Assembly (NCBI GenBank): GCA_963747095.1
Contig: CAVVEL010000022.1
Coordinates: 3,959-67,958, forward strand
Reading direction: 5' to 3'
DNA: 64,000 nucleotides
DNA from: Terriglobia bacterium
GTDB taxonomy: Bacteria > Acidobacteriota > Terriglobia > JAJPHL01
Notes under the pieces: generated by a model
What the model was told of the DNA's origin: nothing
The model's input: the letters and a program-made list of their open reading frames with translations, nothing else
Database searches by the model: none
Program-made: the position numbers and the translations under genes
Shown here: one piece after another, positions 27,742 through 61,989 of the stretch
Layout of the letters: every line of letters starts with the position of its first letter
Position numbering within the stretch: position 1 is the first letter of the stretch

Positions 27742-27743
27742 GC

Positions 27744-29477
27744 CTATACGTTCCCCTTGCGCCGCTCCTCCACCATATGGGTCATGTTGCGCATCGTCAT
27801 GCTGAGGATGGTCAGCGTCGGATTGGTCACGCCGGATGTGCAATGCAGCGAGCCGTCAGCAATGAACAGATTGCGCACGTCGTGAGTCTGTCCCCAACGA
27901 TTGGTGACGAAATTCCTGGGATCGTCGCCCATTCGGCACAATCCCTGTTCGTGGATTTGCGCGCCGGGGATGGAGGGCGAGGTTTCCCATCCGGTCACCA
28001 CTCCGCCGGCAGCTTCGATCCATTCCGCGCCGCGCTGCGCCACATCCTTGACATAGGCTTCCGCATTGGCGCCCCACTTCATGTGGATGCGAACCGCGGG
28101 AATGCCCCAGGCGTCTTTCACGTCGGGGTCGATGTTGACGTAATTGTTGGGATCTTCCAAGCCGCAACCGGCACCGGTAACCGAAACATGCGAGCCGATC
28201 CCGGTGTGCTGATCTTTCTTGAAGGCCTCGCCAAAAGGGGGCGCCATGGCGCGGCCGCTGCTTCCGCCGCCCATCCCGATGCTGCAGTTGCAGGTGAGGA
28301 GATAGCGGCGCAAGAAGTTCTTGTTGCGACTCTTTTCATCAACGTTCATGAAAGGATGAACCGTAACCTCGGAATCGTAGCTGTCTTCGTTGGCCATGGG
28401 ACGATTGAAGAATTCCGGCAGAGTTCCGGAGACGCCGGCCACGCAGTCCTCCACCAGGTGACGGCCGACCTGGCCGCTCGAGTTGGCCAGACCATTCGGA
28501 AACAGGTTCGATTTCGAATTCAGCAGAATCCGCGCCGTTTCGATGGCGCTGGCGGCCAGCACCACAGTTTTGCCGCGTACTTCATTTTCCTGAAAGGTGT
28601 AGCGATCGATATAGCGTACGCCGGAGGCACGGCCCTGGCTGTCCACCGTCACATCGCGCACGATAGCGTTGCTGATCATGGTCAGGTTGCCGGTGGCCCG
28701 TGCCGTCGGCAGCAGCGCGCCGACAGTGGTAAATTTTGAGCCGTTGTCGCAACCTTTTCCGCATCGTCCGCAGTAGTGGCAAGGCGCGCGGCCATTGAGC
28801 GGCTGGGTAATGATCGCGCGCGGACCGGCCACCGCGAGGTAGCCCATCTTCTTCGCCACGCCCTTCATCCAGGTGTTGCCGCACGTCAACCCCGGCGCGG
28901 GCTGATAGACGCCGTCCGGAGTGGCGGTGAGTTTGCCGCAGGCTTCTCCGCTGCAGCCGATTAGTTTTTCGACGCGCGTATACCACGGGTCCATTTCCTC
29001 ATAGGACATCGGCCAATCGATGCCGTAGCCGTCGTAGCTGTAGGGCTTGTACTCCACAGGACCCCAGCGAACCGCGCCGGCGTCCCAGCAATTCGTTTTG
29101 CCGCCGATGGCCCGCGCGCGCATCCAGCGATAGGGCATGCCCTCGGGATGGGTGTAACGCCAGTCGCGGATTTTCGCGAAGAAGTGATCGTTGTAATAGG
29201 TGCTGTGCCCGCTGCCGTCGAAGGTAGTCGTCTGCGTGCTTTCACCCCGACCCACGGTATAGTGCGTGGTTTTTAGCTTCACGTTGACGGGATCGTACTG
29301 GTAATCGTCGCGATAACGCAGTTCCCAGCGCCACTGGTGCTTGCGAATGTCGCGATCCATGTTGTGGCCTCCCGCCTCCACCACCGCGACCTTCACGCCC
29401 GCCTGGCTCAGCACAAACGCCGACATGCCGCCGCCGGCCCCGGACCCAACAATCACGACATCGTATTCTTCGCTCAT
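27744..29477 (-). CDS. GMC-family FAD oxidoreductase, intact, no signal peptide
   Basis: MSEEYDVVIVGSGAGGGM Rossmann start. C-terminal IHEQGLCRMGDDPRNFVTNRWGQTHDVRNLFIADGSLHCTSG GMC active-site region. 577 aa. Confidence 0.85.
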   Translation of the reverse strand: MSEEYDVVIVGSGAGGGMSAFVLSQAGVKVAVVEAGGHNMDRDIRKHQWRWELRYRDDYQYDPVNVKLKTTHYTVGRGESTQTTTFDGSGHSTYYNDHFFAKIRDWRYTHPEGMPYRWMRARAIGGKTNCWDAGAVRWGPVEYKPYSYDGYGIDWPMSYEEMDPWYTRVEKLIGCSGEACGKLTATPDGVYQPAPGLTCGNTWMKGVAKKMGYLAVAGPRAIITQPLNGRAPCHYCGRCGKGCDNGSKFTTVGALLPTARATGNLTMISNAIVRDVTVDSQGRASGVRYIDRYTFQENEVRGKTVVLAASAIETARILLNSKSNLFPNGLANSSGQVGRHLVEDCVAGVSGTLPEFFNRPMANEDSYDSEVTVHPFMNVDEKSRNKNFLRRYLLTCNCSIGMGGGSSGRAMAPPFGEAFKKDQHTGIGSHVSVTGAGCGLEDPNNYVNIDPDVKDAWGIPAVRIHMKWGANAEAYVKDVAQRGAEWIEAAGGVVTGWETSPSIPGAQIHEQGLCRMGDDPRNFVTNRWGQTHDVRNLFIADGSLHCTSGVTNPTLTILSMTMRNMTHMVEERRKGNV

Positions 29478-29490
29478 ATTGTTTCCTCAA

Positions 29491-30699
29491 CTAGCCGATC
29501 TTCTTGATTCGAACATTTCGAAAGTCCACCGTGGATCCCGCGGACACCCGAAAGGCGAGCGGTCCGCGAAGACTGCCGGTGGAATGTCCGTCCCCCGACT
29601 TTACCAGGTTCAGCAAAGTCACCATATGGTTGCCGCTCACGTAAAGATGCGCCTGATTCCACCGCCCGGGATGATAGACGTTCTGCAAACACTGGTCGGT
29701 GAAAAACGCCCGCGACACACCGGGAACCGATCCGCTGGGGAACGTCTCGTCTTTGTCGGAGATGCGAAACTCGGAGCCGCCGCGAAACTCCACGCCCGCA
29801 GTCCCCCCGGCGCTGACTCGGAAGTCGAACGTCAGCATGAAATCGCCGTAGGTTCCTTTCACGGCGGCCGTGGACTCTTGGCCGGCGCCCGAGCCGTGCA
29901 GCACGCCGTCTTTCAACGTCCATCCATTCGCCAGCGCGGTGTCGGGAAGCACGTCGGTGAACTCGCCCGGCGCTTCCGTCAACTGCTCTTCCATCAAACG
30001 GTCGGGATGCGGGCCGGGCGCCAATTCCTGAATCTCGATCTTCCTGAAACGCACTTCCGGCTTGTCGTTGCCGCCGTGGAGATGAAATCCGATGCCTCCG
30101 TAATACGAGCGCCGGCTATGCGTTTCCGCCATCTTATGGCCGTCCATCAAGGTGGTAATGTGATCGCCCTCGCAGCGGATCTCGAAGGAGGTCCATTCGT
30201 GCTCGGGAATCTCGTGAATCGGCGCATCGGCGACATACCAAATGGTGCCGTTGCCGTTTTCCACGCGATCGCCCTGCGCCAGTTTGATCTCGAAGCCATT
30301 CACGGCGGGCCGGCCGACCTTGGCGTGCCCAGCGTCGCGGATCAACACGCCGCTGTTATACAAATGAGCGCCGGGCTGAAGTTGGAAGCGCAGGATGAAG
30401 TCGCCGTAATTCTGGCGCGTCACCAGCCATCCGCCGCCGTGGTCTTCGGCCGGGCGGCGCATCACCAGCGCGCCATCTTCGGCGCTCCAAGAGCCGGGGC
30501 CGACCACTTCCCAGCCGTCCAGGTTGTGACCGTTGAATAAAGGACGCCAGGCGGCCGCCGCAGCGCCGGGGTGGGGCGCAGGAGACGCGGCGGCCTTTTG
30601 TGGAACCTGGGATATGATCGCGGCGGCCACCGCCAGACAGATCACCACGCAAAGCGGTGCAGAGACCGACCGGATCAGCGACGGGTATTCAACCTTCAT
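29491..30699 (-). CDS. secreted double-DUF1080 (3-keto-disaccharide hydrolase domain) protein
   Basis: Signal peptide MKVEYPSLIRSVSAPLCVVICLAVAAAIIS. Two repeats of the DUF1080 pattern (LFNGHNLDGWEVVG...GFHLHGG...VRFRKIEIQEL; GWTLKDGVLHG...FRNVRIKKI). Confidence 0.7.
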   Translation of the reverse strand: MKVEYPSLIRSVSAPLCVVICLAVAAAIISQVPQKAAASPAPHPGAAAAAWRPLFNGHNLDGWEVVGPGSWSAEDGALVMRRPAEDHGGGWLVTRQNYGDFILRFQLQPGAHLYNSGVLIRDAGHAKVGRPAVNGFEIKLAQGDRVENGNGTIWYVADAPIHEIPEHEWTSFEIRCEGDHITTLMDGHKMAETHSRRSYYGGIGFHLHGGNDKPEVRFRKIEIQELAPGPHPDRLMEEQLTEAPGEFTDVLPDTALANGWTLKDGVLHGSGAGQESTAAVKGTYGDFMLTFDFRVSAGGTAGVEFRGGSEFRISDKDETFPSGSVPGVSRAFFTDQCLQNVYHPGRWNQAHLYVSGNHMVTLLNLVKSGDGHSTGSLRGPLAFRVSAGSTVDFRNVRIKKIG

Positions 30700-30743
30700 T
30701 TCCCCCACGATATCCGCCCGGAGGTGGTCTGTCAATGACAAAT

Positions 30744-30760
30744 TGATATCTGATATATCA
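30744..30760. promoter_or_regulatory. AT-rich recurrent motif, site 5 (perfect TGATATCTGATATATCA) between the divergent DUF1080 genes; TGTCAA at 30730-30735 is exactly 8 nt to its left
   Basis: Seen directly. On the minus strand this gives motif-N8-TTGACA-N17-TATCGT-N7-ATG(30699), i.e. a near-leaderless promoter with the motif at about -44 to -60. Confidence 0.5.
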
Positions 30761-30791
30761 CACGGCAGCGTTTTTGTGTTATACCGTTACT

Positions 30792-32042
30792 ATGCTCAAG
30801 CCATCAACTAGTCTTCTTGTCCTGACGATTCTTTTCTCTTGCACCGCCGTGGCGCAACATCCCGCGGCAGCCTCTTCCAAAGGTTGGACCAAGCTCCTGC
30901 AGGGCAACTCGCTGGACGGCTGGGAAGTGGTTCCCATCGGCGCGGGCGGCGGCAAGTGGACCGTTGAGGATGGCGAGCTCAAAGTCACTCGCCTGCTCCC
31001 CGATCGCGGCGCGGCCTGGCTGGTGAGCCGCAAGGATTATGAGGATTTCATCCTACGCGTGAAGTTCCGGCCGAACTCCACCGATTATGTTACCGGCCTC
31101 TTGATCCGCGATCCCGGACACGCCAAGATCGGGCGCCCGGCTTTCAACGCCTACGAGGTGGTGATGCAACGCAATCCCTCGGATATCAATGTGGACGGCG
31201 CGATCTACCACGTGGCCAACGCCTATGACTCCGCAGTCCAGCCGGACCACTGGGTGGAGATGGAAGTACGCTGCGTCGGCGACCACATGGTGGTGCTGTT
31301 GGACCACAAGAAAATGTCGGAGGCTCATACGCGGCGATCCTACAAAGGCGCGATCGGCTTCCACCTGCATGGCGGCGACACCAACGTAAACTACGAGTTC
31401 AAGGACATTGAGATTCAGGAACTGCCTCCCGCACCGCATCCTTATCAACTGATGGAGGAACGCCTGTTGACGGACCTGCACGAGGTCGCGCCATTGTTTC
31501 AATCGCTGGAAGACCTTACTGGGAACGTCGGAAACGCATGGTCCTTAAATAAGGATGTGCTGCACGGCGCGGGAAGCCAGGAGGATTCCGTCCTGCTCAC
31601 CAAGCAGTCGTTCGGGAACTTCCTGCTGGACTTCCAGTTCAAGATCTCTGTGGGAGGCAATGCCGGTGTATTGTTCCGAGTTCCAGCCGACGGTCAGGCG
31701 GAGAAGAGCTATGAGTTCCACATTGAAGATCCGTACAAGGACAACCCCATCGGATCTTTGTTCAATTTGGCGCGCGCTTTCCCCGTGGACGGTAACAACC
31801 AGCCCATCACCAAGTCGGGAACGTGGATTCGCGGGCGGGTCTTTGCCACCGGCGATCATCTGGTGACATACATCAATTCCGAAAAGGGCGTGGACATTCA
31901 CGCCGATCGCAGTTTCCAGGGCCGCATCGGATTCCGCGTGGCGAAAGGCGCGACCATCGACTTCCGCAACGTGACCATCAAACGCGTGGACGAGAAGCCA
32001 GCCGCCAAGAAGGCGCCGGTTTCAAGCAAGAAGCCCACGTAA
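30792..32042 (+). CDS. secreted double-DUF1080 (3-keto-disaccharide hydrolase domain) protein, paralog
   Basis: Signal MLKPSTSLLVLTILFSCTAVAQ. WTKLLQGNSLDGWEVV...GFHLHGG...YEFKDIEIQEL, then a second DUF1080 repeat. Confidence 0.7.
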   Translation: MLKPSTSLLVLTILFSCTAVAQHPAAASSKGWTKLLQGNSLDGWEVVPIGAGGGKWTVEDGELKVTRLLPDRGAAWLVSRKDYEDFILRVKFRPNSTDYVTGLLIRDPGHAKIGRPAFNAYEVVMQRNPSDINVDGAIYHVANAYDSAVQPDHWVEMEVRCVGDHMVVLLDHKKMSEAHTRRSYKGAIGFHLHGGDTNVNYEFKDIEIQELPPAPHPYQLMEERLLTDLHEVAPLFQSLEDLTGNVGNAWSLNKDVLHGAGSQEDSVLLTKQSFGNFLLDFQFKISVGGNAGVLFRVPADGQAEKSYEFHIEDPYKDNPIGSLFNLARAFPVDGNNQPITKSGTWIRGRVFATGDHLVTYINSEKGVDIHADRSFQGRIGFRVAKGATIDFRNVTIKRVDEKPAAKKAPVSSKKPT

Positions 32043-33383
32043 CAACTGTACCGCGGCCTCGCGTACTCCGCGCTCCATGTCCGGCGTGGTGCGCAGGATG
32101 CCGTAGACCTTCCAGGCATCGTCAACTTCATATTTCCCTTTGGGAAATTCGTCGGCGTGCGGCAAGTAGCCGGTGGAGGTGTCGTTCGAATAGGCGGCCA
32201 CCATCAGCTTGCGCTGGTTGGGAAAATCCTTGCGGATCAGTTCCGCGGTCAGATGCAGAATCTCGCCCGGCAAGACGGCCAAGGCCACGTCGCCGATGCG
32301 CGCCGCTTGCACGAACGTGTCGCGGGATTGATGGATATCGCCGCCGTCTTCCAGATGGCGGAGCATTTTCTCCGCCCATTGCTCCCGTTCGAACGATCCG
32401 CTGGTGAGTTGCACGTACTTGGCGCGCATCTCGTCCAGCGTGTAAGGCGCCACGTAGGTAAGCATGACACGCCTGGCGCTGAAGTCGAGCGACGTTCCAC
32501 CGACGGGCTTGGCCGCCGCCAGCGCGCGGCGCGCTTCGTCGGCTAGCTTGCGTCCGTATTCCTCCATTTCCTTGACTCCGCCGAAGACCTTGGGAATCGT
32601 GTCGCCGGCGCAGCCTTGCATATAAGCCACCGGGCACTGCTCGGAGCGTCCCAATTCCCGGTACAGCACGCCGGGAAAATCCGCGGTGATCTGGACATTG
32701 TCGTCGCGCATGGTCACCGGATGCGTCGGGTAGTTCACGATGATGCCGCGATTCCGGCCTTCGGGCGACTTTACTTGAAGCACGTTGAGAATGCCGTCGA
32801 TGGGTCCGGACTCTTTGTTCCAGGTGTTGTCGCGATTGCCAACGCGGCGGTTCAGGCCAATGGAGGATTCCACTTGTCCGAACGACACCGCGGCCGGCGC
32901 GAGATTTCGTTGCGCCTCCTGCGCCAGCAGGAGCAGTTTGTCCGCGTAGAAGAGTTGGTAGCGTTCGTCGGCCGGCCAGATCGGCGTGCCCAGCAAGGCC
33001 GGCGCGGAATGATCGTGGGTGCATTGAATCATGATGCCGTCGTCGCTCATCTTGAGCGCGCCGGCGATTCTCGCGCCGATTTGCCGCCGCAGCGGAAATC
33101 CGATGCCGCCGACGTCGGTCATGATGATCAGGAAGCGCTGGCCCCAATCGAAGAGAAAAGCCTTGGCGAAAATTTCGTCATGCACGCCGGTGGAATAGCG
33201 CAGCCGCGCGCCATAGCCCCACAACTCCGTGGACCAGCCGGGAGTAATGGAGGTCTCCGCGATACCAACCTTCAAGGAAGCGTCGCTCTTCGGCGCTTGG
33301 CCCAAAAGGCGGGCGACGACGCCCGCTGCCAGTGCAGCGGCGCCGCCCAGGCATTCCCGCCGGGAAAACTTCTTGGATGGCAT
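32022..33383 (-). CDS. Tat-exported hydrolase of the neutral/alkaline ceramidase N-terminal-domain family
   Basis: Tat signal MPSKKFSRRECLGGAAALAAGVVARLLG. VGIAETSITPGWSTELWGYGARLRYSTGVHDEIFAKAF resembles the neutral ceramidase N-terminal motif. RBS AGAGGA 7 nt before ATG 33383. Family call is tentative. Confidence 0.45.
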   Translation of the reverse strand: MPSKKFSRRECLGGAAALAAGVVARLLGQAPKSDASLKVGIAETSITPGWSTELWGYGARLRYSTGVHDEIFAKAFLFDWGQRFLIIMTDVGGIGFPLRRQIGARIAGALKMSDDGIMIQCTHDHSAPALLGTPIWPADERYQLFYADKLLLLAQEAQRNLAPAAVSFGQVESSIGLNRRVGNRDNTWNKESGPIDGILNVLQVKSPEGRNRGIIVNYPTHPVTMRDDNVQITADFPGVLYRELGRSEQCPVAYMQGCAGDTIPKVFGGVKEMEEYGRKLADEARRALAAAKPVGGTSLDFSARRVMLTYVAPYTLDEMRAKYVQLTSGSFEREQWAEKMLRHLEDGGDIHQSRDTFVQAARIGDVALAVLPGEILHLTAELIRKDFPNQRKLMVAAYSNDTSTGYLPHADEFPKGKYEVDDAWKVYGILRTTPDMERGVREAAVQLLRGLLA

Positions 33384-33402
33384 ACCATTGTCCTCTTCCA
33401 TC

Positions 33403-33419
33403 TAATATCTGATATATTA
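33403..33419. promoter_or_regulatory. AT-rich recurrent motif, site 6 (TAATATCTGATATATTA) between the divergent ceramidase-like and Tat-Gfo/Idh/MocA genes
   Basis: Read rightward it contains TGATATATT (extended -10 like, TGnTATAAT). This is followed by GGAGG at 33428-33432 and ATG 33437. Confidence 0.5.
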
Positions 33420-33436
33420 CCAGTTCGGAGGTCCTT

Positions 33437-34630
33437 ATGTCCCCTCGAATTGTAGGCCGTCGCGATTTCCTTGCCGCCGGTTTGGCCGGCGCCGCCTTCA
33501 CAACCTTGGCATCGGCGCAAACGCCCGCGCGTAAGGTGCGCTATGGCATTGTGGGCGCGGGAAACCGCGGGCGCAACGTTCACATGCCGATTCTAAGGCG
33601 TCAGGTGCCGGAAGTGGAAATCGCAGCCATCTGCGACATCACCCCGGCCACTCTGCAAACCGCGCTCGATGCCAATCCCGGCGCCAAGGGCTATTCAGAT
33701 TATCGCAAGATGCTGGCCGAGGAGCCGAACCTCGATGCGGTCCTAGTGGTCGTACCGAATTTCCTGCACGCTGAAGTGGCTTTGGCGGCGCTGGAAGCCG
33801 GCAAGCACGTTCTGGTGGAAAAGCCGATGGCGTTGCGGCTGACCGATGCCGATCGCATGATCGCAGCCGCACGCCAGCGAAACCGCGTGCTGCAAGTCGG
33901 TTTGCAATCCCGCTACAGCGAGGTCTACGCCAAGATGGCGCAGATGATTCGCGACGGCGCCATCGGGGACGTCTCCTACATGTTCGCATCGCTGTTTCGC
34001 GGCGATTGGAATCCCAAGAGCTGGCAGTACACCGATCCGGCCACGGGAAAATCCACCAACTGGCGCTTCCTGACCAAATGCGCGGGCAGTTCCCTGCTGG
34101 AAGACGGCATTCATGAGCTGGATGTGATCCACTGGCTGGTGGCGTCCGATCCGACGACCATTCAGGCGCAAGGCGGCAACAGCGTCTATCGCGATCGCGA
34201 GACGATCGATAACGCCGGCCTGCTGGTGCGTTTCGCCAATGGCGCGCAGCTCACCTTCGGGTACACCGTGTTTACGCCCGGCTCGTCCGGCACGCGACTA
34301 GTGCGCGTGATGGGATCGAAAGCGGAGATGCGGCTGGAAGGAACACGGCACGATTTCGAAATCGTGATCGCGCCCTATGGCGGCAAGGATCAGCGGATTC
34401 CCATCAAGGACCAGCGCGCCGACGAGAGCTTCTGGGCCGAGAGCGGAAGAGTAGACTTCGACGTGGAGACCTACCGCGAGCATCGCGCGTTTCTCCAGTC
34501 GATCACCACGGGTGCGCCGGTTCGTGCCGACGGCAAAGTGGGGCGCGACGCGATTCACATTTCTCTAGCGGCGGAGCGCTCCTTGCGCAACGGCCGCATC
34601 TACAAATGGAACGAGGAGGAAGGAATATGA
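33437..34630 (+). CDS. Tat-exported (periplasmic) Gfo/Idh/MocA-family oxidoreductase
   Basis: MSPRIVGRRDFLAAGLAGAAFTTLASAQ Tat signal, then Rossmann VRYGIVGAGNRGRNVHMP and EKPM. Confidence 0.8.
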   Translation: MSPRIVGRRDFLAAGLAGAAFTTLASAQTPARKVRYGIVGAGNRGRNVHMPILRRQVPEVEIAAICDITPATLQTALDANPGAKGYSDYRKMLAEEPNLDAVLVVVPNFLHAEVALAALEAGKHVLVEKPMALRLTDADRMIAAARQRNRVLQVGLQSRYSEVYAKMAQMIRDGAIGDVSYMFASLFRGDWNPKSWQYTDPATGKSTNWRFLTKCAGSSLLEDGIHELDVIHWLVASDPTTIQAQGGNSVYRDRETIDNAGLLVRFANGAQLTFGYTVFTPGSSGTRLVRVMGSKAEMRLEGTRHDFEIVIAPYGGKDQRIPIKDQRADESFWAESGRVDFDVETYREHRAFLQSITTGAPVRADGKVGRDAIHISLAAERSLRNGRIYKWNEEEGI

Positions 34631-35118
34631 GGAAAGTTCTGGCAGCGGGTGGTTGGGTGTTGGCAGCTTTTGTGATTGGCTACTACGCTCCGCATTCCGG
34701 CAAGGTTCTGGCGGCGGCTCAGGAACAGATCCGTTCCATTACGCTTCCGGGCGAGGCTGCGCCAATCGCGCGCTATTCGCACGCCGTGCTGGTTCCGGCC
34801 GGACAGGACTTGATCTTCGTCTCGGGCGCGGGCGGCGATAACTCCAAAGGCGAAATTGTCTCGCCGAGCGTGGTGGAACAAACGCGGCAAACCATGGAAA
34901 ACCTAAAAAAGGTCCTGGCGGCCGCGGGATCGGATTTTTCGCATGTCGTAAAGATGAACATTTTCCTGACCGACATGGACCACATGCCCGAGTTGCGCAA
35001 AGTTCGCGACGCCTATCTCGATCCGCAGCACGCCCCGGCGATGACCACCGCCAAGGTGGTCGACTTGGTGGGCGGGATCAAAGTGGAGATCGAAGTGGTG
35101 GCGGTGCGCAAGAAGTAG
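34627..35118 (+). CDS. RidA/YjgF-family protein with N-terminal signal/anchor sequence
   Basis: MRKVLAAGGWVLAAFVIGYY hydrophobic N-terminus, then a RidA fold (IARYSHAVLVPAGQDLIFVSG...HVVKMNIFLTDMDHMPELRKVRDAYL). ATGA overlap with the upstream gene. Confidence 0.7.
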   Translation: MRKVLAAGGWVLAAFVIGYYAPHSGKVLAAAQEQIRSITLPGEAAPIARYSHAVLVPAGQDLIFVSGAGGDNSKGEIVSPSVVEQTRQTMENLKKVLAAAGSDFSHVVKMNIFLTDMDHMPELRKVRDAYLDPQHAPAMTTAKVVDLVGGIKVEIEVVAVRKK

Positions 35119-36531: not shown

Positions 36532-36556
36532 ATTGGAAGTGCGATTCTTGCCGGAA

Positions 36557-38440
36557 GGGGGTTGGATGCACCCAAATTTATCTGTTGTGTCGCGCTGGCT
36601 GGCGTTATGCCTGCTGATCGTCCCGGCCGCGGTGACGGCCCAACCGCCGCCCGATTCGAAACCGGACCAGAACAAGGATCCTCATCCGGCGGTGATGGCC
36701 CCGCCGCAAAGCCGCGCCGGCTCCGACACGCAACTGCGGCAGGCCGCGCAGAGCGCCACGCGCGACGGGCTGCGGCCCGTTCCAGTCAAGAACCTCATCG
36801 ACAAATTCATTTTCGACAAGATCGCCAAGGACAAGATTCCCTGCGCCGGACTGTCCACCGACGAAGAATTCCTGCGCCGGATTCACCTCGACCTGACCGG
36901 CCGGCTGCCCTCGCCCGAGGTGATTCGCGCGTTCTTAGCCGATACGCGTTCGGACAAGCGCGAGCGGATGATCGACGGTTTGATGGCCATCAAGTGGGAT
37001 CCCCAGGACAACGACAAGCCGGAAACGCCCTACCTCTCGCGGTGGACCTACTTCTTCAGTGAATTGTTCCAGGTCTCCAACAACCACATGGCAGAGGGCC
37101 GCAACCTCTTCCATGACTATGTACATTTTGCTCTCCTGGACAATGTACCGTACAACGAAATGGTCCGGGACATGCTCACGCACACAGCGCGATCGAGTTG
37201 GCTGGACGGACCTGTCAATTTTTTGGCCGCCGACCATGTGAACGATTCCGATTTCGTGGATGTCAACCAGGAAGATACCTATGACGCGCTGGCCATCACC
37301 ACGGGAAAATTGTTCCTGGGCATCAACCTGGAATGCGTCTCCTGCCATAGTGGAAAAGGACATTTGGAGAAGATCAATCTAGGTCTCAGCCGCATCCCGC
37401 GCGATCAGTTTTGGCGGCAGAGCGCGTTCTTCAGCCGGCTGGAGCTCAAGCACACATACCACCAATCGGAAGAGTTTTCGATGTTGGAGAAGCATCCAGG
37501 TTACGACGTCACCACCACCAGCGTGCAGCGTATGCCGCGCTACAAAGCCGACGTCGGCCCGCAGTTTTTACTTGGCGGCGAGCGTCCCGGGCCGAACGAA
37601 CCTTGGCGCGATGCTTTCGCGCGCATCCTGACCTCGAATCCGCAGTTCGCGCGCGCCACGGTCAACCTGATTTGGGCGGAACTGATGGGCGTCGGCATCG
37701 TGGATTCGCCCTTCAGTTTCGATTTGGCGCGCCAGGATCCGGCCAACCCGCCGCCTGCGCCGTGGACCATCCAGCCTTCTCATCCCGAATTGCTCGACGC
37801 TTTGGCTGAGGATTTTCGGACTCATCACTACGATCTGCGGTATCTGATTCGGCTCATCACGACGTCGAGCACCTATCAGCTCTCGTCGCATTTCGATGGC
37901 CAGTGGAAGCCGGCATACGATTCCTACTTTGCCCGGCGACACGTCCGGCGGTTGCCGCCGGAGATGATCGCCGATGAAGTCACCCAGGCCAGCGGAATCT
38001 TCCCGGAAATTGCCATTCGCTACACCGCCAAGAAAAAAGTCAACTACATGACCGAAACCTACGCCCCCGACGACGTGGGCGGCCCGACGCGGAAATTCAT
38101 GACCGCTCTGGGACAGGGTAATCGCACCCTGATGGTGGAGGTGGGAGCGTACAACAACAACGGCTCGATTGTGGAAGCCTCGGTGCTGATGAACAGCCCA
38201 TTCGTCAAGGACCACGTGAAGGTGGGAGACAAAGGTCGTCTGCACGATCTGCTGAATCACACGCCGCCGTTGTCCGACGAAGCGAAAGTGGATGAGCTTT
38301 TCCTGTCATTCCTCGGCCGGCCGCCGTGGCCGGAGGAACGGAAAACAGCTCTTGCGGCGCTGAGTGCCTCTGCAACGACAGGGCTGTCGGACTTGGCTTG
38401 GAGCTTAATCAACATGCCGGAGTTTGTGTTGAATTACTGA
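36557..38440 (+). CDS. PSD1-type protein (DUF1549 + DUF1553), secreted
   Basis: Signal MHPNLSVVSRWLALCLLIVPAAVTAQ. DUF1549 region (FIFDKIAKDKIPCAGLSTDEEFLRRIHLDLTGRLP). C-terminal DUF1553 (TSSTYQLSS). Confidence 0.8.
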   Translation, partial: GGWMHPNLSVVSRWLALCLLIVPAAVTAQPPPDSKPDQNKDPHPAVMAPPQSRAGSDTQLRQAAQSATRDGLRPVPVKNLIDKFIFDKIAKDKIPCAGLSTDEEFLRRIHLDLTGRLPSPEVIRAFLADTRSDKRERMIDGLMAIKWDPQDNDKPETPYLSRWTYFFSELFQVSNNHMAEGRNLFHDYVHFALLDNVPYNEMVRDMLTHTARSSWLDGPVNFLAADHVNDSDFVDVNQEDTYDALAITTGKLFLGINLECVSCHSGKGHLEKINLGLSRIPRDQFWRQSAFFSRLELKHTYHQSEEFSMLEKHPGYDVTTTSVQRMPRYKADVGPQFLLGGERPGPNEPWRDAFARILTSNPQFARATVNLIWAELMGVGIVDSPFSFDLARQDPANPPPAPWTIQPSHPELLDALAEDFRTHHYDLRYLIRLITTSSTYQLSSHFDGQWKPAYDSYFARRHVRRLPPEMIADEVTQASGIFPEIAIRYTAKKKVNYMTETYAPDDVGGPTRKFMTALGQGNRTLMVEVGAYNNNGSIVEASVLMNSPFVKDHVKVGDKGRLHDLLNHTPPLSDEAKVDELFLSFLGRPPWPEERKTALAALSASATTGLSDLAWSLINMPEFVLNY

Positions 38441-38468
38441 CGATCCACACCAAAGAGGGGTTGAAACA

Positions 38469-39851
38469 ATGGCAATGGACGAAATCCTGACTGATCGGCC
38501 GACTCTCAACCGCCGGCTTTTCTTGCGAAGTGGTCTGGCGTCTCTCAGCGGGTTCTATCTTGCTCCGATGCTGGCGCCACTCAACGTCCGAGCGGACACT
38601 CCGCTAAAGCTGCGAGGACAAGCCGAGTTCTGCGTGTTTCTGTTCCTGCGCGGCGGTCCCAGCCAACTCGATACCTTCGATCTGAAAGAAGGGCGCTGGA
38701 CTCCGCCGGATTTCGACGTGCGCAAGACCAAGGGCATCCTGATGCCTTACGGATTGTTCCCTGGTATCAGCCAACAACTGGATCGTTTCGCGATCGCGCG
38801 CTCGGTGCAATCCTGGGAGAGTTCGCATATTCGCGGTGTTTACTATTTGCAAGCCGGACACCCGATGAGTCCCGCTCGGCAGAAGGAGATTCCCTCTATT
38901 GGAGCCGTGGTGGCCTACGAATACTTGTCGCGCCGGCGCGCCGGCGATTTTTTGCCACCCTTCGTGACCGTCAACGCCGATTCCGCCGCCTTGGTGAAGG
39001 AAGGTTGTCTCGCACAGGGAGCCACCCCGATGACTCTCTCCACGGGAGGCGATTCCTCCTTCCTGATTCCCGATAAAGATAGGGCGGACTTCGATCGGCG
39101 CTGGAAACTCTTGGAGCAACTCAACGCCGGCAAGGCCGGCAGTTCTTTGAAGACCGCGGACAACTGGCTGTCCTATTCCGACGGCGCGGATCGCTTGATG
39201 ACCAACCCGGCCGTCGGACAGATCATGCGGATCGAAAGCGACGATCACAAACGATATGGAAATTCCGCCTTGGGCGATGGTTGTGTCCTGGCGCGAAATC
39301 TGCTGAAGGCCAATGCCGGCACGCACTACATCATGATCGAGCACAGCGCTTGGGATTCCCATAGCAATATGTTCGATCGCAAGGATCGGGACAATCACTA
39401 TACCGTCTGCAATCAGCTCGACTCGGCGGTTTCTTCCCTGGTGAGCGATCTCAGCCAGATCCCGTCCGCGGACGGAAAGTCTACGCTGCTGGACAAAACG
39501 TTTGTGGTTTGTGCCGGTGAGTTCGGACGGACCGGCGGCGAGCTCAATGTGACCAAAGGCCGCGATCACAATCGCATGGCGCAATCGGTGCTGTTTGCCG
39601 GCGCCGGCGTGAAGGGCGGACGCGCCTTCGGCCAAACGGACGATCGCGGCGAGAAAGTCATCAAGCCGGAATGGCACTTGGACCGCCCGATCTATACGGA
39701 GGATATCTTTGCCACCATCTACTCGCAGATGGGCATTGACTGGAATAAGACCATTACCAACACGCCGTCCGGCCGGGTTTTCGAGTATTTGGAGGGCGCG
39801 TCCGGCACCGCCTTCCTCGATCCCAGCGAGATCTCGGTGCTGTTTTCATAA
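38469..39851 (+). CDS. DUF1501 (sulfatase/alkaline-phosphatase-like) protein with Tat signal
   Basis: TLNRRLFLRSGLASLSGF. FLFLRGGPSQLDTFDLK and GEFGRTGGELN...GRDHN are conserved DUF1501 motifs. Confidence 0.8.
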   Translation: MAMDEILTDRPTLNRRLFLRSGLASLSGFYLAPMLAPLNVRADTPLKLRGQAEFCVFLFLRGGPSQLDTFDLKEGRWTPPDFDVRKTKGILMPYGLFPGISQQLDRFAIARSVQSWESSHIRGVYYLQAGHPMSPARQKEIPSIGAVVAYEYLSRRRAGDFLPPFVTVNADSAALVKEGCLAQGATPMTLSTGGDSSFLIPDKDRADFDRRWKLLEQLNAGKAGSSLKTADNWLSYSDGADRLMTNPAVGQIMRIESDDHKRYGNSALGDGCVLARNLLKANAGTHYIMIEHSAWDSHSNMFDRKDRDNHYTVCNQLDSAVSSLVSDLSQIPSADGKSTLLDKTFVVCAGEFGRTGGELNVTKGRDHNRMAQSVLFAGAGVKGGRAFGQTDDRGEKVIKPEWHLDRPIYTEDIFATIYSQMGIDWNKTITNTPSGRVFEYLEGASGTAFLDPSEISVLFS

Positions 39852-42874: not shown

Positions 42875-44224
42875 ATGTCCACCGAGGTTACGCGGCGTTT
42901 TTTCGGCAAATTGGCGGCAGCGGCTGCCGGCTTGAGCATGTCATCCCGGGCGCAGGACAAAGTTGTTCAGGATCGAGGCGCCTCTACCAAGAAACTGGCG
43001 CTCTTCGGCGGCCCGAAAGCCGTTCAGGAGAAGGCACCACCGTGGCCGGTCATCGCGGGGAACGACGAAGAGAACTGGATGGCCGTTCTGAAGAGCGGCA
43101 ACTGGAACCGCTGGTCCGGGAAGTATGTCCAGACCTTCGAGGAAAAGTGGTCGGAGGAACTGGGTGGCAAGAAAGTGCTGGCGGTGTCGAATGGAACCGC
43201 GGCGCTGGTGACCGCGGCTTTCGCGGTGGATATTGCGCCGCACGACGAGGTGCTGGTGCCAACCATGACGTACATAGCCACCATCAACCCCGTGCTGATC
43301 CATAGCGCGCTGCCGGTCTTTGTGGATACCGATCCCGAAACGTTTCAGATGGACGCGACGAAGCTAGAGGCCGCCATTACACCGCGCACGAAGGGGATTA
43401 TCCCGGCGCACATGGGCGGCGCGTCCTGCGACCTCGATAAAATCATGGCCGTTGCGAAGAAGCACAACCTGTGGGTGATCGAAGATGGCTGCGAGGGCGT
43501 TAAGACAGAGTGGCGGAAGCAAAAGATCAACACCTTCGGCAACGTGGGATGCTTTAGCTTTCAGGCTTCCAAGAACCTCTCCTGCGGCGAGGGCGGAGCG
43601 CTGGTGATTAACGACATGTCATTGTACGAGCGCTGCGCCTGCTTTCACACCAACGGCTGGATGCCCGGCGCGCACAACAATACGATTCTGATGAACGGCC
43701 TGAACTACCGCCTTACCGAGTTCCAAGGCGCGCTCTTGCTATCGCAATTGGCCCGCCTGGAAGAGCAGCAGCAGACCAGGGAAAGCAATGCGCTTTACCT
43801 GAGCGCCCGCATCAGCGAGATCCCTGGCATTCAACCGGCGCGTATGTACGAGGGGAATACGCGCAATAACTACTACGGCTACATGGTTCGCTACCAGAAG
43901 GAAGCGTTCGGCGGCGTGCCGCGCGCAAAATTCCTGAGGGCGCTGGGCGCCGAAGGCGTTCCCGTCGGCGCGTGGAGTGACGCTCTGCACAAAGAACCAG
44001 TGATCGAGAAGACTCTGAACTCGCGGACCTACCAAACCATCTACTCGCCCAAGGTACTGAAGGAATACCGCGAGCGTCTCCACTGCCCGCAGAACGACCG
44101 AGCCGCGGAAGAAGCCTTATGGATGACGGGAAGGACGCTGAACGGTCCGCGGCGCAGGGCCGAGCAGATTGCCGACGCGTTCCACAAGGTCGCGGCCAAT
44201 ATCGGTGAGCTGGCCAAGTCCTAG
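42875..44224 (+). CDS. DegT/DnrJ/EryC1-family PLP-dependent (sugar) aminotransferase carrying a twin-arginine signal
   Basis: MSTEVTRRFFGKLAAAAAGLSMSSRAQ (T-R-R-F-F-x-K Tat consensus). SFQASKNLSCGEGGAL PLP-lysine region. VSNGTAAL. Confidence 0.7.
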   Translation: MSTEVTRRFFGKLAAAAAGLSMSSRAQDKVVQDRGASTKKLALFGGPKAVQEKAPPWPVIAGNDEENWMAVLKSGNWNRWSGKYVQTFEEKWSEELGGKKVLAVSNGTAALVTAAFAVDIAPHDEVLVPTMTYIATINPVLIHSALPVFVDTDPETFQMDATKLEAAITPRTKGIIPAHMGGASCDLDKIMAVAKKHNLWVIEDGCEGVKTEWRKQKINTFGNVGCFSFQASKNLSCGEGGALVINDMSLYERCACFHTNGWMPGAHNNTILMNGLNYRLTEFQGALLLSQLARLEEQQQTRESNALYLSARISEIPGIQPARMYEGNTRNNYYGYMVRYQKEAFGGVPRAKFLRALGAEGVPVGAWSDALHKEPVIEKTLNSRTYQTIYSPKVLKEYRERLHCPQNDRAAEEALWMTGRTLNGPRRRAEQIADAFHKVAANIGELAKS

Positions 44225-44263: not shown

Positions 44264-45641
44264 TCACGGGTGCTTCCACGTGGACGGGTAAGATTGGCCG
44301 GAGGGCGTGGGATTGTCCCGCAGCCTTCCGAGTAACCGGTCCACGTCGATCAGCGCCCGATTTATCATCGCTTCGCCGGCTCCCGGTTCGACGCCCGTCA
44401 TAATGTTATTCGCGCCTAGTCCACCCGTCGACGCGGCTTCGATGGTTGGGAAGTAACCGAAGTATCCGTTCGCGTACCCCACGAAGAACGTGTGGGCCAG
44501 CGGCGAGCGAGCGCGGAAATCGGTCTGCAACTGCACGAAGAATTCTCCTGGGAACGCCGCCCAGGCAATGTCGCCATCGATCACGATCACCGCCAGCGGC
44601 ATGCGAGGATTCGCCTTTACGTGATCAACGTAGCCGCGCCACCGCGAGAATTCGCCGATGAAATCGGTGTTGGGCCATCGCGGTGCAACGGGCAGTTCCT
44701 CCGAGATCAATTTGATGCTGCCCGATTGCTGCGTAGCCGTCTGGATGGCGCGGGCTACGGTGATGACCCGCGAGGCGAAGAATTGTCCGAGTTGCCGCAC
44801 GCCATCGTCGGCAGCCGGGTCGGCGCCGTGCGGCCTCTGCGGGTTGATGTCTCCGGCGGCGCCTTGCAGGAAGAAGCACACCGGCCGCGATGGAAACGCG
44901 GCCGACACCTGCGCGCGGACTACGCCGGGATAATCGGCGGAGAACATATCGCGCTCCTGGCGGATCACCGGGTGCGCCGTCGCGTTGATCAAGATTGCCA
45001 ACGGCTCTCCCGTTCCGCTATCGTCCAAGCGAAGCACCGCAAAAGTAGGATCGATGGGGCCGCTGGCAATCGCGTCGCGGTTTCCATCGATGCCGCTGAG
45101 CATGGTGACCGAACCGTCCGTGCGAACCAGCCGGCGGTTGTAGCCGATGACCGCGGAACCAAACGCGAATCCAATTTTCACCGGGCGGGCCGTGCGGGTC
45201 GCATCACGAATGGCGGAGACGATTCGCTCTTCGAAACTCTTCTCCCAAGGAGGAATCTCCGCTCCGGAGAAATCGTCCTGGAAGAAGGGACCTGAGTGTG
45301 TGTGCGTGGCCGAGAAGAAGACATGAGGAACGACCGCTGCCACCTGCTGCTGAATGCGGTGTTGCGTCGGAATACCTGGGGTTCGGCCGCAGTCCAGGTC
45401 CACCCACGCAAAGGCTTCTCCGTTACTGCCGCGCAGATACAGCACTTGCGCGTAGAGGGGATCGAGCGCGCCCTTCGCATAGACGCGATTGTCCCAGGCG
45501 CCATAGCCCCACATCGCCACGACCCCAGGCGGTGGCGTGATGTTGAACGCTTCGAGCACCCGCCACGAGCGGTTCTGGACTCGCGTTTGCCTTTGCTCCG
45601 AATGCGCCTAGGATGGCCGCCAGAAACAGCATCTTCCGCAA
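44264..45641 (-). CDS. neutral/alkaline ceramidase-like hydrolase, paralog; signal peptide lies in a separate frame, so there is one frameshift near 45560-45600
   Basis: ORF 45423-45641 begins MRKMLFLAAILGAFGAKANA (signal). The body ORF 44264-45559 carries WGYGAWDNRVYAKGALDPLYAQVLYL...FSATHTHSGP. Confidence 0.45.
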
Positions 45642-45707: not shown

Positions 45708-48700
45708 CTAGAAATGGAACTTCATCGAGAACTGCAAAATTCGCGGCAACGTAACGGTGGTGGTTATGTTGGCGACCGAGCTGTTGCCGTTGGGCGCGAT
45801 GGCCGCATTCGGCAGGCCCAAGTTGGGATGATTCAGCGCGTTGAACATTTCAAAGCGGAATTCCAGGCCGTAGCTCTCACGGATCGCGAAGGTCTTCGAG
45901 AGGCCGGTATCGAAGGTGAACGCCGCTGGGCCGCGCAGGATAAACGCCGAAGAGTTGCCTTCCACGAGTTGCGCGCCTGGGGTAGTCGGTTCCACCGGCA
46001 TCGAGAAGCACGTCTTGTCAAACCAATTGAAGGCAGTGGGATTGCTGATCGCTCCGTTGCAGGTGCGGTTCGGCAGGTCCACCTGAAGCTCCGGGTTGTT
46101 CAATAGGTTGGTGCCGGAGAGAACCGGTGTGAAGGGGAAGCCGCTCCTGGCGGTGAAGATGCCGCTCAGTTGCCATCCGCCCACAACCTCGTTGGCCCAG
46201 CCGCCGTGGTTGAGGAACTTCTGGCCTTTGCCAAAAGGCAGCATGTAGATCGGCGAAATCGTTGCCGAGTTGGGAACATCGTTGAATCCCGCGGATTTAA
46301 GTGGAGCATATAGGTTGTCCACGCCCCAGGTCGTACCGATGCTGCGAGAATGCGTATACCAAGCGGTGAGGGTGAAACCTTTGCTCAGGCGGCGGGTGAC
46401 TTTCACTTGCAGCGCTTGATAATCGGAAGTGTCCTGGAAATCGTAGTATTCGATCGCGCCCAACTTCGGAAAAGGCGTTACCTGCGACTGACCCTTGGCC
46501 AGGACCATGCCGACCGGGCCCGGTACATTGTAATAACAGCACGCCGTGGGATTGGCCGCTCCGGAGACCGGATCCAAGTGCCGCGCCAGCGTCGCGACGT
46601 AACCTACTTGCAAGGTGGTGTCCTTGGTGAGCTGGCGTTCCAAGGTTAGGTTCCATTGGTAAGTCGATGGATCTTTGTAATTTCCGAAGGTTTCCCAGGC
46701 AGGGGCCGGAATGACCAGGCCAGCGTCGGGATTGCTGATATTCAACGGCGGAGGGCTCATGCGCGACGAATAAGTCGCCGTCTTCAGATCCAACTCGTAG
46801 GGAAAAGTCCCGTCAATTGAGTTTTGCTGATAGTCCCCCAACGCATGGCCATAAAAGATGCCGCCGCCCCCGCGAAGCACGGTCTTGCCGTTCATCTGCC
46901 ATGCGAACCCCGCGCGGGGCTGAAATTCATCTTTGGGTGAGGTTACGCAACTATCCGGCTTGCCCGCCGAGCGGCAAGTAACGACGACCCCTGGGAAGTT
47001 CGCTAGCACCTGAGCCGAGACGGTCGAAGGAAGCTGGCCGTTGGAACCGTTAGCGACCGCCACCTGTCCGGTGAACTGACCATTACTGAGCAGCGGGAGC
47101 GACCAGACCGGCGGATCCGTTCAACAGGCGTGTGGTGAACTCATAACGCAGTCCCACATTCACGGTTAAGCTACGGCTGACGCGCCATGTATCCCAAGCG
47201 TAGCCGGCCCACGTTGAAAAATGGTCGCTCAGCGTTGAGGTGGCCTGCCCCGCTTCGAAGTAGCTCAGATCGCCAAGCAAGAAGTCTCCCATCGCGTCTC
47301 CCGCAGTGCAACTGGTCGCCGATGCGCTACCTGGACAGTTTGTGGTCGCCACCGTGGGGTATCGGGCATCGCGCGTTTGCGCCCCGTTGAATCGAAACTG
47401 CCCGCGGGCCCGCGCCGTGTCTTCCAGGGTTCGCGCACCATAATACAGTTCACCGCCGAGCCGCAAGGTATGCTTGCCCCGAATCAACGTCAGATTGTCG
47501 AGACCCTGCCAGTTGGTCTCGGAAACGCGGAAGGGGCGCGTGTTGCCGGCGGCGATTGTGGTCGAGCCGATCAAGATCGTCGGCAATCCGGGAGGCGCGG
47601 TCGGCGACATGAATTGCGCCAAGCCCCACTGTTGCAGAAACGGCGTAGTGCCGACGGGGCCGATGCTTTGGTAGTTCTGCGGATTGGTGGAGACGCCGAA
47701 GCGAGCTTCGTTGATGGTCGCGGGACCAAAATTGTGGATCCAGGTCCCAGTGATATTCTTGCCGCCTAAATCATCCTGCTCTTCGCCATTGATGCCACCC
47801 AGGTTGGTGGCCTCCGGCCCTTGACCAAGAAGGTAGTTCGAGCTTTGCGTATAGCGGGCAAAGAACGTGTTTTTCTCGGAAAAGTTGTAGTCCACGCGGA
47901 TGTTGAATTGATTGATGGTGCGCCAGCGCTCCGGGTCGTAGGCGTAATTCTGGCTTGGCTCCAGCGCGAGACCCGCGTTGTTGGTGTTCTGCACACCCGG
48001 CGTATTCGGCAACGGGTACTGCTGGATGATTTGCTGGTCGATAGAGTTGAAACGGATGGAAGGAATCGTGTTGTTGGGGAACTGCAGCCCGGTGAGGGGG
48101 TCGAAGACCAGAACGCCGCTCGGGAAAACTCCGTTGCGATTCGCCACGGTTGGCACGAATGTGGTCAGCGGGTTGGAGAGAACTTCGCGCATCCCCTCAT
48201 AGTTGAAAAAGAAGAACAGCTTGTCCTTCTTGATCGGCCCACCGAAAGTTCCGCCGAATTGATTGCGCTTCAGAAGCGGTGTGACGTGGGGACCGCTATA
48301 TTCCCACTCCGCGCCGTCGAAATAGTCGTTGCGCACAAACTCATAGAGCGAGCCATGGTATCGGTTGGTTCCCGATTTCATGGTCACGTCCACTTGAGAG
48401 GGACCGCGGCTGTACTCGGGCGAGAAATTGGCGGTCTGGATTTTTACCTCGCCAATGGCATCGACGGAAACCGGGATATTGGCGCCTCCGAACTCGCTTT
48501 CCGAGTTGTCCACGCCGTCCAGACGATAAGTAACGAACGCCGCCCCGCCGCCGTTGACGTCGTAGGTCAGCATGCCATTCCGCTGTTGACCCGCCAGATT
48601 GGGATCGTTGTTCTTGAAGAGGTAATCGTAGGTAGCCGGCAGCGTTCCCGGCGAGAGTTGCAGCAATTGCGTGAATTGGCGGCCGTTCAGCGGAAGATTG

Positions 48701-49127
48701 ACCACTTGATCGCTGCTCACCACCGTGCCCACGCTGGCGTCCTCGTTTTGCAACAGCGGCGCCGCGGAGGTCACAGTGACTTCCTGGCCCATCGTGCCGA
48801 CCTTCACGGTTACGTCAATGCGGGCCTGCTGGTCGATCTGCAGCGTAATTCCGGTGAGCGTCTCGTTGCGAAAGCCCGTCGCCTTGACCGTCAACGTGTA
48901 GGGCCCGTAATCAAGCTCGGGAACACATAGACGCCGGAGCCGTTGGACGGCACGGTCTTGTCCACGTCCGTGGCGGTGTTGTGGACCGTCACCATGGCGT
49001 TGGGGACCACCGCGCCCGTAGTATCGCGCACGGTTCCTGCCAAAGAGGCGTTACCGATCTGCGCAACGGCAGTCGAACAGAAAACAGCAATTGTGATGGC
49101 CAGAAGCCAAGAGGCAGTCCGCTTCAT
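45708..49127 (-). CDS. TonB-dependent outer-membrane receptor of the Acidobacteria CarboxypepD_reg type; reading frame broken twice (near 47085-47100 and 48890-48900)
   Basis: Three consecutive ORFs (48891-49127 signal + CarboxypepD_reg GTVRDTTGAVVPNAMVTV; 47083-48894 plug/barrel; 45708-47063 C-terminal barrel ending in an aromatic residue). Either a pseudogene or sequencing errors. Confidence 0.6.
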
Positions 49128-60071: not shown

Positions 60072-60128
60072 TAGGGGAGCGCGAGAACCACCGCTCGCTT
60101 TGTGACAGCCGGTCGCCGGCAGGAAGCT

Positions 60129-61979: not shown

Positions 61980-61989
61980 CGGAGGACTC

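Follow-up and report, generated by a model that had tools for sequence, protein, structure and literature searches.

A DegT-family aminotransferase with a twin-arginine signal, its clade, and its ceramidase-like gene neighbour in a Terriglobia bacterium

DegT/DnrJ/EryC1-family transaminases are textbook cytoplasmic enzymes of nucleotide diphosphate (NDP)-sugar and aminoglycoside biosynthesis. Here we describe a member of this family whose precursor carries a twin-arginine translocation (Tat) signal. It is encoded in a stretch of 64,000 nucleotides from a Terriglobia bacterium of the Acidobacteriota (assembly GCA_963747095.1, contig CAVVEL010000022.1, positions 3,959 to 67,958 of the forward strand), which we call the window and whose numbering is used throughout. 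The window has a G+C content of 60%. The nearest relatives of the DegT enzyme and of its ceramidase-like neighbour, termed the partner below, come from metagenome-assembled genomes of Bryobacteraceae (75-77% identical). The genes and features at the locus are the following, where PLP stands for pyridoxal 5'-phosphate and ORF for open reading frame.

42875..44224, + strand: DegT/DnrJ/EryC1-family PLP aminotransferase gene, an intact ATG-initiated ORF encoding a Tat-signal precursor of 449 aa
42865..42868, + strand: Shine-Dalgarno core AGGA, read from the sequence, 6 nt 5' of the DegT ATG
42875..42952, + strand: predicted Tat signal peptide, residues 1-26 (n-region MSTEVTRRFFGK, h-region LAAAAAGLSM, c-region SSRA)
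43571..43573, + strand: codon of Lys233, the predicted PLP Schiff-base lysine (FSFQASK), invariant in the alignment
44264..45632, − strand (main ORF 44264..45559): partner, an amidase of the neutral-ceramidase fold (PF04734-related), convergent with the DegT gene and 40 bp from its stop

The DegT precursor begins with MSTEVTRRFFGKLAAAAAGLSMSSRA, which is followed by a cut-type site and QD, as read directly from the DNA. It contains the Tat motif T6-R-R-F-F-G-K12 (pattern T-R-R-x-F-x-K), an Ala/Gly-rich h-region of 10 residues with a mean Kyte-Doolittle value of 1.73, and a c-region that includes an Arg and an S-R-A cleavage-type site ahead of Q27. Cleavage is predicted between A26 and Q27 by the -3/-1 rule. 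The protein thus has the motif of the S/T-R-R-x-F-L-K type, the weakly hydrophobic h-region and the A-x-A-type site by which Tat signals are recognised. In the AlphaFold model residues 1-37 have a predicted local distance difference test score (pLDDT) below 50, the ordered fold beginning near residue 40. Met1 has a good Shine-Dalgarno sequence; none precedes the in-frame Met22, which with M68 would be an alternative, internal start. A promoter and terminator scan around the gene gave counts no better than those of shuffled sequence. Besides DegT, at least six proteins of the window have clear Tat signals, namely the two AP_endonuc_2/Gluconate_2-dh3 fusions, two DUF1501 proteins, a ceramidase-like protein and a Gfo/Idh/MocA protein, so the genome clearly uses the Tat pathway.

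Conservation of the signal was followed in the 120 closest 90%-identity cluster representatives, which share 48-79% identity with the window protein and are nearly all 430-460 aa long. The motif [ST]RRxF[LV] stands at the same place and is followed by an Ala/Gly-rich stretch in 118 of them, the other two having a truncated or over-extended start. Both signal arginines are invariant in a 35-sequence alignment in which the remaining signal is free to vary, the pattern expected for a functional Tat signal. Automatic classification of Tat signals and other signal peptides applied rules that were too narrow and missed the window protein as well as the Tat-type signals of partners; classes were therefore set by inspection of N-termini. 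A signal peptide that is kept across orthologues of 50-79% identity must be translated, which places the start upstream of the RR motif and speaks against a true start at M22 or M68, the outcome that a preliminary description of this DNA had named as fatal to its proposal. Export of the enzyme by the Tat pathway is well supported at the level of sequence. It is extremely unlikely that the RR motif is fortuitous, or that translation starts downstream of it, and that the product is an ordinary cytoplasmic NDP-sugar aminotransferase. The in-frame Met22 would allow this, but the motif, the h-region and the cleavage-type site persist in nearly all relatives with both arginines unchanged, it is Met1 that has the Shine-Dalgarno sequence, the signal is limited to one clade of the tree described next, and cytoplasmic relatives start about 38 residues later.

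A HMMER scan of 1.84 billion 50%-identity representatives returned 4,365 DegT relatives at E<=1e-30. RR signals are present in every one of the top full-length clusters. At scores of about 285 bits and lower the relatives are about 400-430 aa long and start with 'M-(x)-KLA-x-GG-x-P', which is the mature start predicted for the window protein. We built a neighbour-joining tree from 402 mature-domain columns, excluding the signal region, and analysed its unrooted splits with 50 bootstraps. One split, recovered in 40 of the 50 bootstraps, sets the whole of the 25 Tat-bearing sequences, along with four N-terminally truncated fragments, apart from all 101 cytoplasmic ones. The Tat-bearing DegT proteins are one clade inside a subfamily of cytoplasmic enzymes, which answers the phylogenetic question posed in the preliminary description. 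The clade is large and occurs in Acidobacteriota, Verrucomicrobiota and Armatimonadota. A second, distant DegT lineage from Verrucomicrobia (33-35% identity; loci L064 and L158) has a Tat signal of its own, LTRRQFLAAGCAAASGAALG.

The mature protein matches Pfam DegT_DnrJ_EryC1 (PF01041) over residues 63-384 with E=8.6e-87 and 292.1 bits against a cutoff of 19.8. Together with the intact ORF and the conserved signal this confirms the first proposal made for the gene, i.e. a DegT-family PLP enzyme with a near-consensus Tat signal. Among the NCBIfam equivalogs (WecE, PseC, LegC, ArnB, DesI, RfbH) none exceeded its cutoff, the top one being a WecE-like model at 196 vs 375 bits. In public annotations the relatives go by nothing more specific than 'DegT/DnrJ/EryC1/StrS family aminotransferase', or else by the incorrect name 'perosamine synthetase'. 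Lys233 is retained throughout the 25 Tat-clade and 101 cytoplasmic sister sequences, and Asp204 (in IEDG) is invariant in the 35-sequence alignment and in these 126 sequences. From knowledge of the family we take Lys233 to be the Schiff-base lysine and Asp204 the acidic partner of the pyridine nitrogen. A Lys instead of a His at position 233 argues for a transaminase over a dehydratase of the ColD/E1 type. Glu203, Ser228, Gln230, GEGG238-241, His179 and Thr108 are likewise common to the Tat clade and its cytoplasmic sisters, only two positions being specific to the Tat clade. Since the catalytic residues are the same, the chemistry is probably alike in both compartments. The window enzyme is predicted to be a transaminase with a keto or amino sugar-like substrate.

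The AlphaFold (AF2) model of the protein has a pLDDT of 83.3, and all of its top 50 Foldseek matches in the PDB are DegT-family enzymes. The best ones are Fic25 (8GYH/8GYI/8GYJ), BtrR (2C81, 5W71) and RbmB (5W70), with template modelling (TM) scores of about 0.76-0.87. AHBA synthase comes next, and the NDP-sugar enzymes Per, WbpE, WecE and ArnB rank lower. By sequence, the closest core match among PDB chains is GDP-perosamine synthase (E=5e-55), and BtrR alone aligns over nearly the entire mature protein (residues 53-419, E about 1e-53). BtrR and RbmB, the L-glutamine:2-deoxy-scyllo-inosose aminotransferases of aminoglycoside biosynthesis, belong to the same DegT branch as the window protein and share with it an N-terminal '...GG.P...WP' segment and a C-terminal extension. 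Their substrate, 2-deoxy-scyllo-inosose according to the PDB titles, is a nucleotide-free keto-cyclitol. They differ from the window protein in that they are only 29-30% identical to it, are cytoplasmic without a signal peptide, and are biosynthetic enzymes of antibiotic gene clusters. Fic25, a 'sugar-aminotransferase-like' enzyme of ficellomycin biosynthesis in Streptomyces ficellus, is the best structural match (Foldseek E=5e-34). Its chain residue 2 aligns with query residue 39, so that its N-terminus coincides with the mature start predicted for the window protein. Its substrate is a carrier-bound dihydroxy-oxo-heptanoate and no NDP-sugar (PMC11726168). Fic25 thus resembles the enzyme proposed here in using a hydroxy-flanked ketone without a nucleotide; it is unlike it in being cytoplasmic, in acting on an amino-acid derivative bound to a carrier protein, and in sharing only about 30% identity. 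These three enzymes and AHBA synthase all use hydroxy-ketones that bear no nucleotide. Because the nearest solved relatives are Fic25, BtrR and RbmB and not the NDP-sugar transaminases, a nucleotide-free substrate is likely. The window protein thus stands in the DegT branch for nucleotide-free, hydroxy-flanked ketones and amines, which fits a compartment without NDP-sugars. The NDP-sugar transaminases of the GDP-perosamine synthase type, as well as NtdA of the NtdA/NtdC kanosamine pathway, share the Pfam family and the catalytic lysine. However, they are cytoplasmic, act on sugar phosphates or NDP-sugars, and are without the N- and C-terminal segments that the window protein has in common with BtrR. 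NtdA itself matches the window protein with E=6.6e-36, well under other solved relatives.

The 431-aa main ORF of the partner had no Pfam match in the domain scan of the window. Its homologues match PF04734 and are annotated as 'neutral/alkaline non-lysosomal ceramidase N-terminal domain-containing protein'. Invariant in the partner family are H113/H115 (THTHSGP), H223, D236, QGxxGD(I)NP, E366, Y389/Y396 and R169/R170, so that the fold of the ceramidase catalytic domain is present together with its metal-site and catalytic motifs. Most members are about 420-500 aa long compared with 630-690 aa in the solved ceramidases, to which 369-378 residues align, and the C-terminal domain typical of characterised ceramidases is missing. 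Identity to the neutral ceramidases of Pseudomonas aeruginosa (2ZWS) and human (4WGK) is about 20%, and the partner departs from them further in being encoded beside a transaminase and in carbohydrate-type contexts. These sequence features suggest amidase activity on N-acyl-amines. In the window a Sec-type signal, MLFLAAILGAFGAKANA, begins at 45632 in a frame that differs from that of the catalytic ORF, which itself has no signal. Alignment with the intact orthologue of locus L001 reveals a 1-nt indel near 45545-45560 at the 5' end of the gene. The frameshift may be an assembly error or the mark of a pseudogene. The former is suggested by the neighbouring gene on the − strand (45708-47063 and 47083-48894), which encodes a single TonB-type outer-membrane beta-barrel protein and is also split, its two ORFs covering positions 1-396 and 413-838 of the OMP_b-brl_4 profile; indel errors or decaying genes are thereby indicated twice in the vicinity of DegT. 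TonB-type outer-membrane proteins of the same family lie near DegT in three to four other Tat-clade loci.

For the neighbourhoods of relatives, 166 loci were gathered from species genomes, metagenomes and contig look-ups, and neighbours within 8 kb were clustered. Genes were called with a simple caller that reproduced the gene map of the window. The ceramidase-like family, to which the partner in the window belongs, is the commonest neighbour. Of 30 Tat-clade loci 10 have it, in each case no more than 3 kb from DegT and mostly on the same strand at 0-200 bp; among the cytoplasmic sisters it is present at 12 of 48 loci. Between the window and L001, whose DegT proteins are 75% identical, the DegT and ceramidase-like genes (the latter 77% identical) are the only close orthologues (>=75%), the remaining matches being two weak ones at paralogue level (26% identity). 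L001 has an operon of Tat-DegT, a Sec-signal ceramidase-like protein and a Tat-signal IolE-like TIM barrel. The partners encoded beside Tat-DegT genes have a Sec or Tat signal in every assessable locus (8-10, the Tat-type signals being read by eye), whereas 7 of the 12 beside cytoplasmic DegT genes have none. Partner signals thus track the compartment of DegT, which supports a two-enzyme module moving between compartments as a unit. Where the ceramidase-like gene is lacking, another hydrolase may take its place. In L097 it is a CE4 polysaccharide deacetylase with a Tat signal, whose gene and the start of DegT overlap; an exported Amidohydro_2 protein is encoded directly upstream of DegT in L090 and L006, and an exported alpha/beta-hydrolase directly downstream in L010. 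The cytoplasmic versions of the pair, from Chloroflexota and other phyla, lie amid sugar-type ATP-binding cassette (ABC) transporters and Gfo/Idh/MocA genes.

Two loci concern more distant DegT proteins. In L064 (1064-4805) a signal-bearing ceramidase-like gene directly adjoins the Tat-DegT gene of the distant lineage (33% identity), so that the exported pairing may have arisen, or been retained, more than once. Locus L168 (1082-11374) begins with a fragmented ceramidase-like gene, a GH3 gene, a Sec-signal ceramidase-like gene and a signal-less DegT gene (487 aa, 33% identical). A tRNA gene, a Sec-signal 3-keto-disaccharide-hydrolase protein, a Tat-signal AP_endonuc_2 protein and a Tat-signal Gfo/Idh/MocA protein follow. 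This gene order ties the ceramidase-like/DegT pair to glycoside and keto-sugar genes.

The simplest reading in keeping with these observations, to which we give an even chance, is that the exported pair is a periplasmic deacylase and transaminase module which turns N-acyl-amino sugars or polyols into keto compounds. In such a scheme the DegT enzyme would fold and bind PLP in the cytoplasm, probably as a dimer, and would be exported by the Tat pathway, its signal being cut after Ala26. In the periplasm it would join a separately exported hydrolase, usually the Zn-type amidase of the neutral-ceramidase fold (44264..45632 in the window). The hydrolase would deacylate an amino sugar, aminocyclitol or comparable amino-polyol that carries an acyl group on its nitrogen, and the transaminase would turn the freed secondary amine into a ketone, handing the nitrogen to a 2-oxo acid. 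The keto product would then pass to periplasmic keto-sugar enzymes, i.e. IolE-like/AP_endonuc_2 TIM barrels, 3-keto-disaccharide-hydrolase-domain proteins and Gfo or GMC oxidoreductases. Several candidates for this last step are encoded nearby in the window and also in some related loci. From family, signal and gene context we infer the actual export of the enzyme, its substrate and amino acceptor, and the direction in which it works. Given the conserved amidase neighbour, we favour deacylation and then conversion of the amine to a ketone by transamination over amination of 3-keto-glycosides. The carbohydrate flavour comes from the CE4 substitution, from the GH3 and keto-sugar genes of L168, and from the ABC transporters and Gfo/Idh/MocA genes beside the cytoplasmic versions.

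Several points weigh against a deacylase-transaminase module. The window partner is convergent and thus not co-transcribed with DegT, and the frameshift parts its signal peptide from its catalytic domain. About half of the Tat-clade loci have no hydrolase beside DegT, the pairing being frequent and not obligatory. The numbers behind the co-variation of signals are small and partly obtained by eye; an automatic hydrophobicity rule, which misses Tat-type signals, gives p=0.2. L168 breaks the co-variation by pairing an exported ceramidase-like gene with a signal-less distant DegT. Finally, a periplasmic 2-oxo-acid/amino-acid co-substrate is needed and its source is unexplained, a gap that equally affects PtaA.

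The preliminary description had placed the gene in an island of periplasmic sugar-oxidation genes, and at the level of domains this island is real. The window encodes several GMC oxidoreductases, two Tat-signal AP_endonuc_2/Gluconate_2-dh3 fusions, two 3-keto-disaccharide-hydrolase-domain proteins and one Tat-signal Gfo/Idh/MocA protein. From this, and by analogy with NtdC/NtdA, it had been suggested that a periplasmic transaminase might turn 3-keto-glycosides into 3-amino sugars, or act in reverse. Spelled out, the exported transaminase would aminate 3-keto-glycosides supplied by periplasmic GMC or Gfo/Idh/MocA enzymes, in a biosynthetic or detoxifying direction. We regard such amination as rather unlikely. 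The keto-sugar genes lie within about 8-15 kb of DegT, similar genes adjoin the pair in L168, Gfo/Idh/MocA neighbours are frequent beside the cytoplasmic sisters (12 of 48 loci), and transamination runs both ways. However, all of the window genes concerned are more than 8 kb away with unrelated genes between, the nearest Gfo/Idh/MocA gene being at 8.2 kb. In the 29 other Tat-clade loci, the neighbours within 8 kb include no Gfo/Idh/MocA gene, no 3-keto-disaccharide-hydrolase domain, two GMC and two AP_endonuc_2 genes. Moreover, NtdA matches worse than many members of the family, and amination leaves the conserved amidase partner unexplained. The pairing after the model of NtdC and NtdA is therefore not borne out. 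The reverse reaction, from amine to ketone, is kept in the scheme given above, with which it overlaps; it is the direction favoured by the amidase partner, and the reaction is reversible.

The fold of the partner also raises a sphingolipid route, in which a true ceramidase frees a sphingoid base in the periplasm and DegT transaminates the C2 amine of its 2-amino-1,3-diol head group. This head group resembles the hydroxy-flanked amines of the present DegT branch (compare the Fic25 substrate), and Pseudomonas SphBC provides a precedent for periplasmic sphingoid-base metabolism (PMC11893366). The route is nevertheless very unlikely, because the partner (about 450 aa) has no C-terminal domain of the ceramidase kind, the cytoplasmic pairs keep company with sugar-type ABC transporters and Gfo/Idh/MocA genes, a polysaccharide deacetylase occupies the partner position in L097, and the L168 pair is surrounded by GH3 and keto-sugar genes. 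Pseudomonas SphD does not serve as an example of a ceramidase-linked periplasmic aminotransferase; it is described as a predicted PLP-dependent aldolase that is dispensable (PMC11893366).

A role in the cell envelope is a further alternative. Here the transaminase would work on periplasmic glycans or lipids that the cell itself has made, such as exopolysaccharide, lipopolysaccharide (LPS) or lipid A, and would install their amino groups or take them off, and the amidase would be a remodelling deacylase. DegT enzymes classically make envelope sugars, glycosyltransferases occur within 8 kb in some loci, and export alone fits biosynthesis equally well. But glycosyltransferase, epimerase and acetyltransferase neighbours are typical of the distant NDP-sugar relatives and not of the Tat clade (cluster 0, 2 of 30 loci; cluster 1, 1 of 30), and most genes in the window and related loci serve catabolism and uptake, encoding TonB-type outer-membrane proteins, peptidases, oxidoreductases and major facilitator superfamily transporters. 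We consider an envelope role quite unlikely.

Tat export of PLP enzymes has precedents. PvdN and PtaA, which tailor pyoverdine in Pseudomonas, are exported folded with their cofactor and carry out periplasmic transamination, and they pose the same question of how the cofactor is recycled in the periplasm (PMC6206403). They differ from the window protein in belonging to another protein family, in acting on the glutamate of a peptide siderophore and in having no amidase partner. No PvdN chain is among the 55 PDB sequences that match the window protein at E<=1e-10. A literature search found nothing on a Tat-exported or periplasmic DegT enzyme, a periplasmic sugar aminotransferase or a ceramidase-DegT pairing, but it left most subscription journals uncovered and does not prove absence. 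The enzyme family and the export route are known; their combination, the clade and the gene pairing appear to be undescribed. A Tat-exported DegT clade would extend periplasmic PLP chemistry past the two known pyoverdine enzymes. The export signal and the clade are a robust finding that would surprise a specialist of sugar aminotransferases, whereas the function is proposed on indirect grounds. The pairing would supply a first functional context for the widespread short 'ceramidase-like' proteins of bacteria, and the cytoplasmic sister module offers a matched comparison for the exported pair.

More tentatively, soil bacteria of several phyla might possess a nucleotide- and phosphate-independent periplasmic route from N-acylated amino sugars via keto-glycosides into oxidative keto-sugar pathways, made up of an exported deacylase and a Tat-DegT enzyme. 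This seems to us possible, if less than probable. Candidate deacylases are the ceramidase-fold, CE4 and Amidohydro_2 proteins; the substrates could be aminocyclitols, or residues of chitin, peptidoglycan, LPS O-antigens and other microbial necromass glycans. The module suggests how abundant soil bacteria could get at the nitrogen of N-acylated amino sugars, in which a large share of soil organic nitrogen is stored. If true, the route would be a new extracytoplasmic mineralisation of amino-sugar nitrogen and would imply a periplasmic pool of 2-oxo-acid/amino-acid co-substrates.

Further features of the window are listed below.

9304-10893 and 22670-24250, − strand: fusions of a Tat-signal AP_endonuc_2 domain (xylose-isomerase-like TIM barrel) with a Gluconate_2-dh3 small subunit
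25998-26318, − strand: GMC_oxred_C piece
26488-27096, − strand: unassigned ORF among the GMC pieces
27127-27843, − strand: GMC FAD-binding N-terminal piece
32022..33401, − strand: ceramidase-like paralogue of the partner with its own Tat signal SRRECLGGAAALAAG (Pfam Ceramidase_alk E=6.8e-16)

Upstream of DegT on the same strand lies a gene for a cytoplasmic LacD-type tagatose-1,6-bisphosphate aldolase, preceded by an S9 peptidase gene and a PSCyt2/PSD1-DUF1501 pair. Neither LacD (0 of 29 other Tat-clade loci) nor the PSCyt2/PSD1-DUF1501 pair (1 of 29) is a conserved partner of DegT. The window has two pairs of PSCyt2/PSD1 with a Tat-signal DUF1501 protein (36533-39851 and 60102-63363), and in L004 (4231-7972) such a pair is found directly upstream of Tat-DegT on the same strand.

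The fusion gene at 22670-24250 is directly beside a GMC gene (24266-25972). Those GMC flavoproteins whose N-terminus was read (27744, 54714, 56498) are without a signal. A Tat signal on the fusion and none on the flavoproteins suggests hitch-hiker export of the flavoprotein with the fused keto-sugar-processing domain. The GMC pieces lie in a row (25998-27885, − strand) and apparently represent a broken gene. The contiguous block 29491-34630 encodes the two 3-keto-disaccharide-hydrolase-domain proteins and the Tat-signal Gfo/Idh/MocA protein (33437-34630), with the Tat-signal ceramidase-like paralogue lying between the former two and the latter. In it the ceramidase-like family adjoins an oxidoreductase, not a transaminase. 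The paralogue is 28% identical to the partner (E=5e-18) and may act in the same pathway.

RidA proteins quench reactive enamine and imine products of PLP enzymes. After the Tat-signal Gfo gene follows a RidA/L-PSP gene (34606-35118, + strand) whose product has a hydrophobic N-terminal segment, and RidA-family genes are found within 8 kb of Tat-DegT in two other loci (L003:13008-13511 and L010:4191-4574). An exported RidA could be relevant to the Tat-DegT enzyme.

Two other regions of the window are seemingly unrelated to the DegT finding. One is an IS-type DDE_3 transposase gene (4238-5371, − strand). In the other, at 17014-22632, a LarA-like gene (lactate-racemase family) lies by an aldehyde dehydrogenase gene, with a 4Fe-4S/NrfD gene and then a gene for a 923-aa molybdopterin oxidoreductase.

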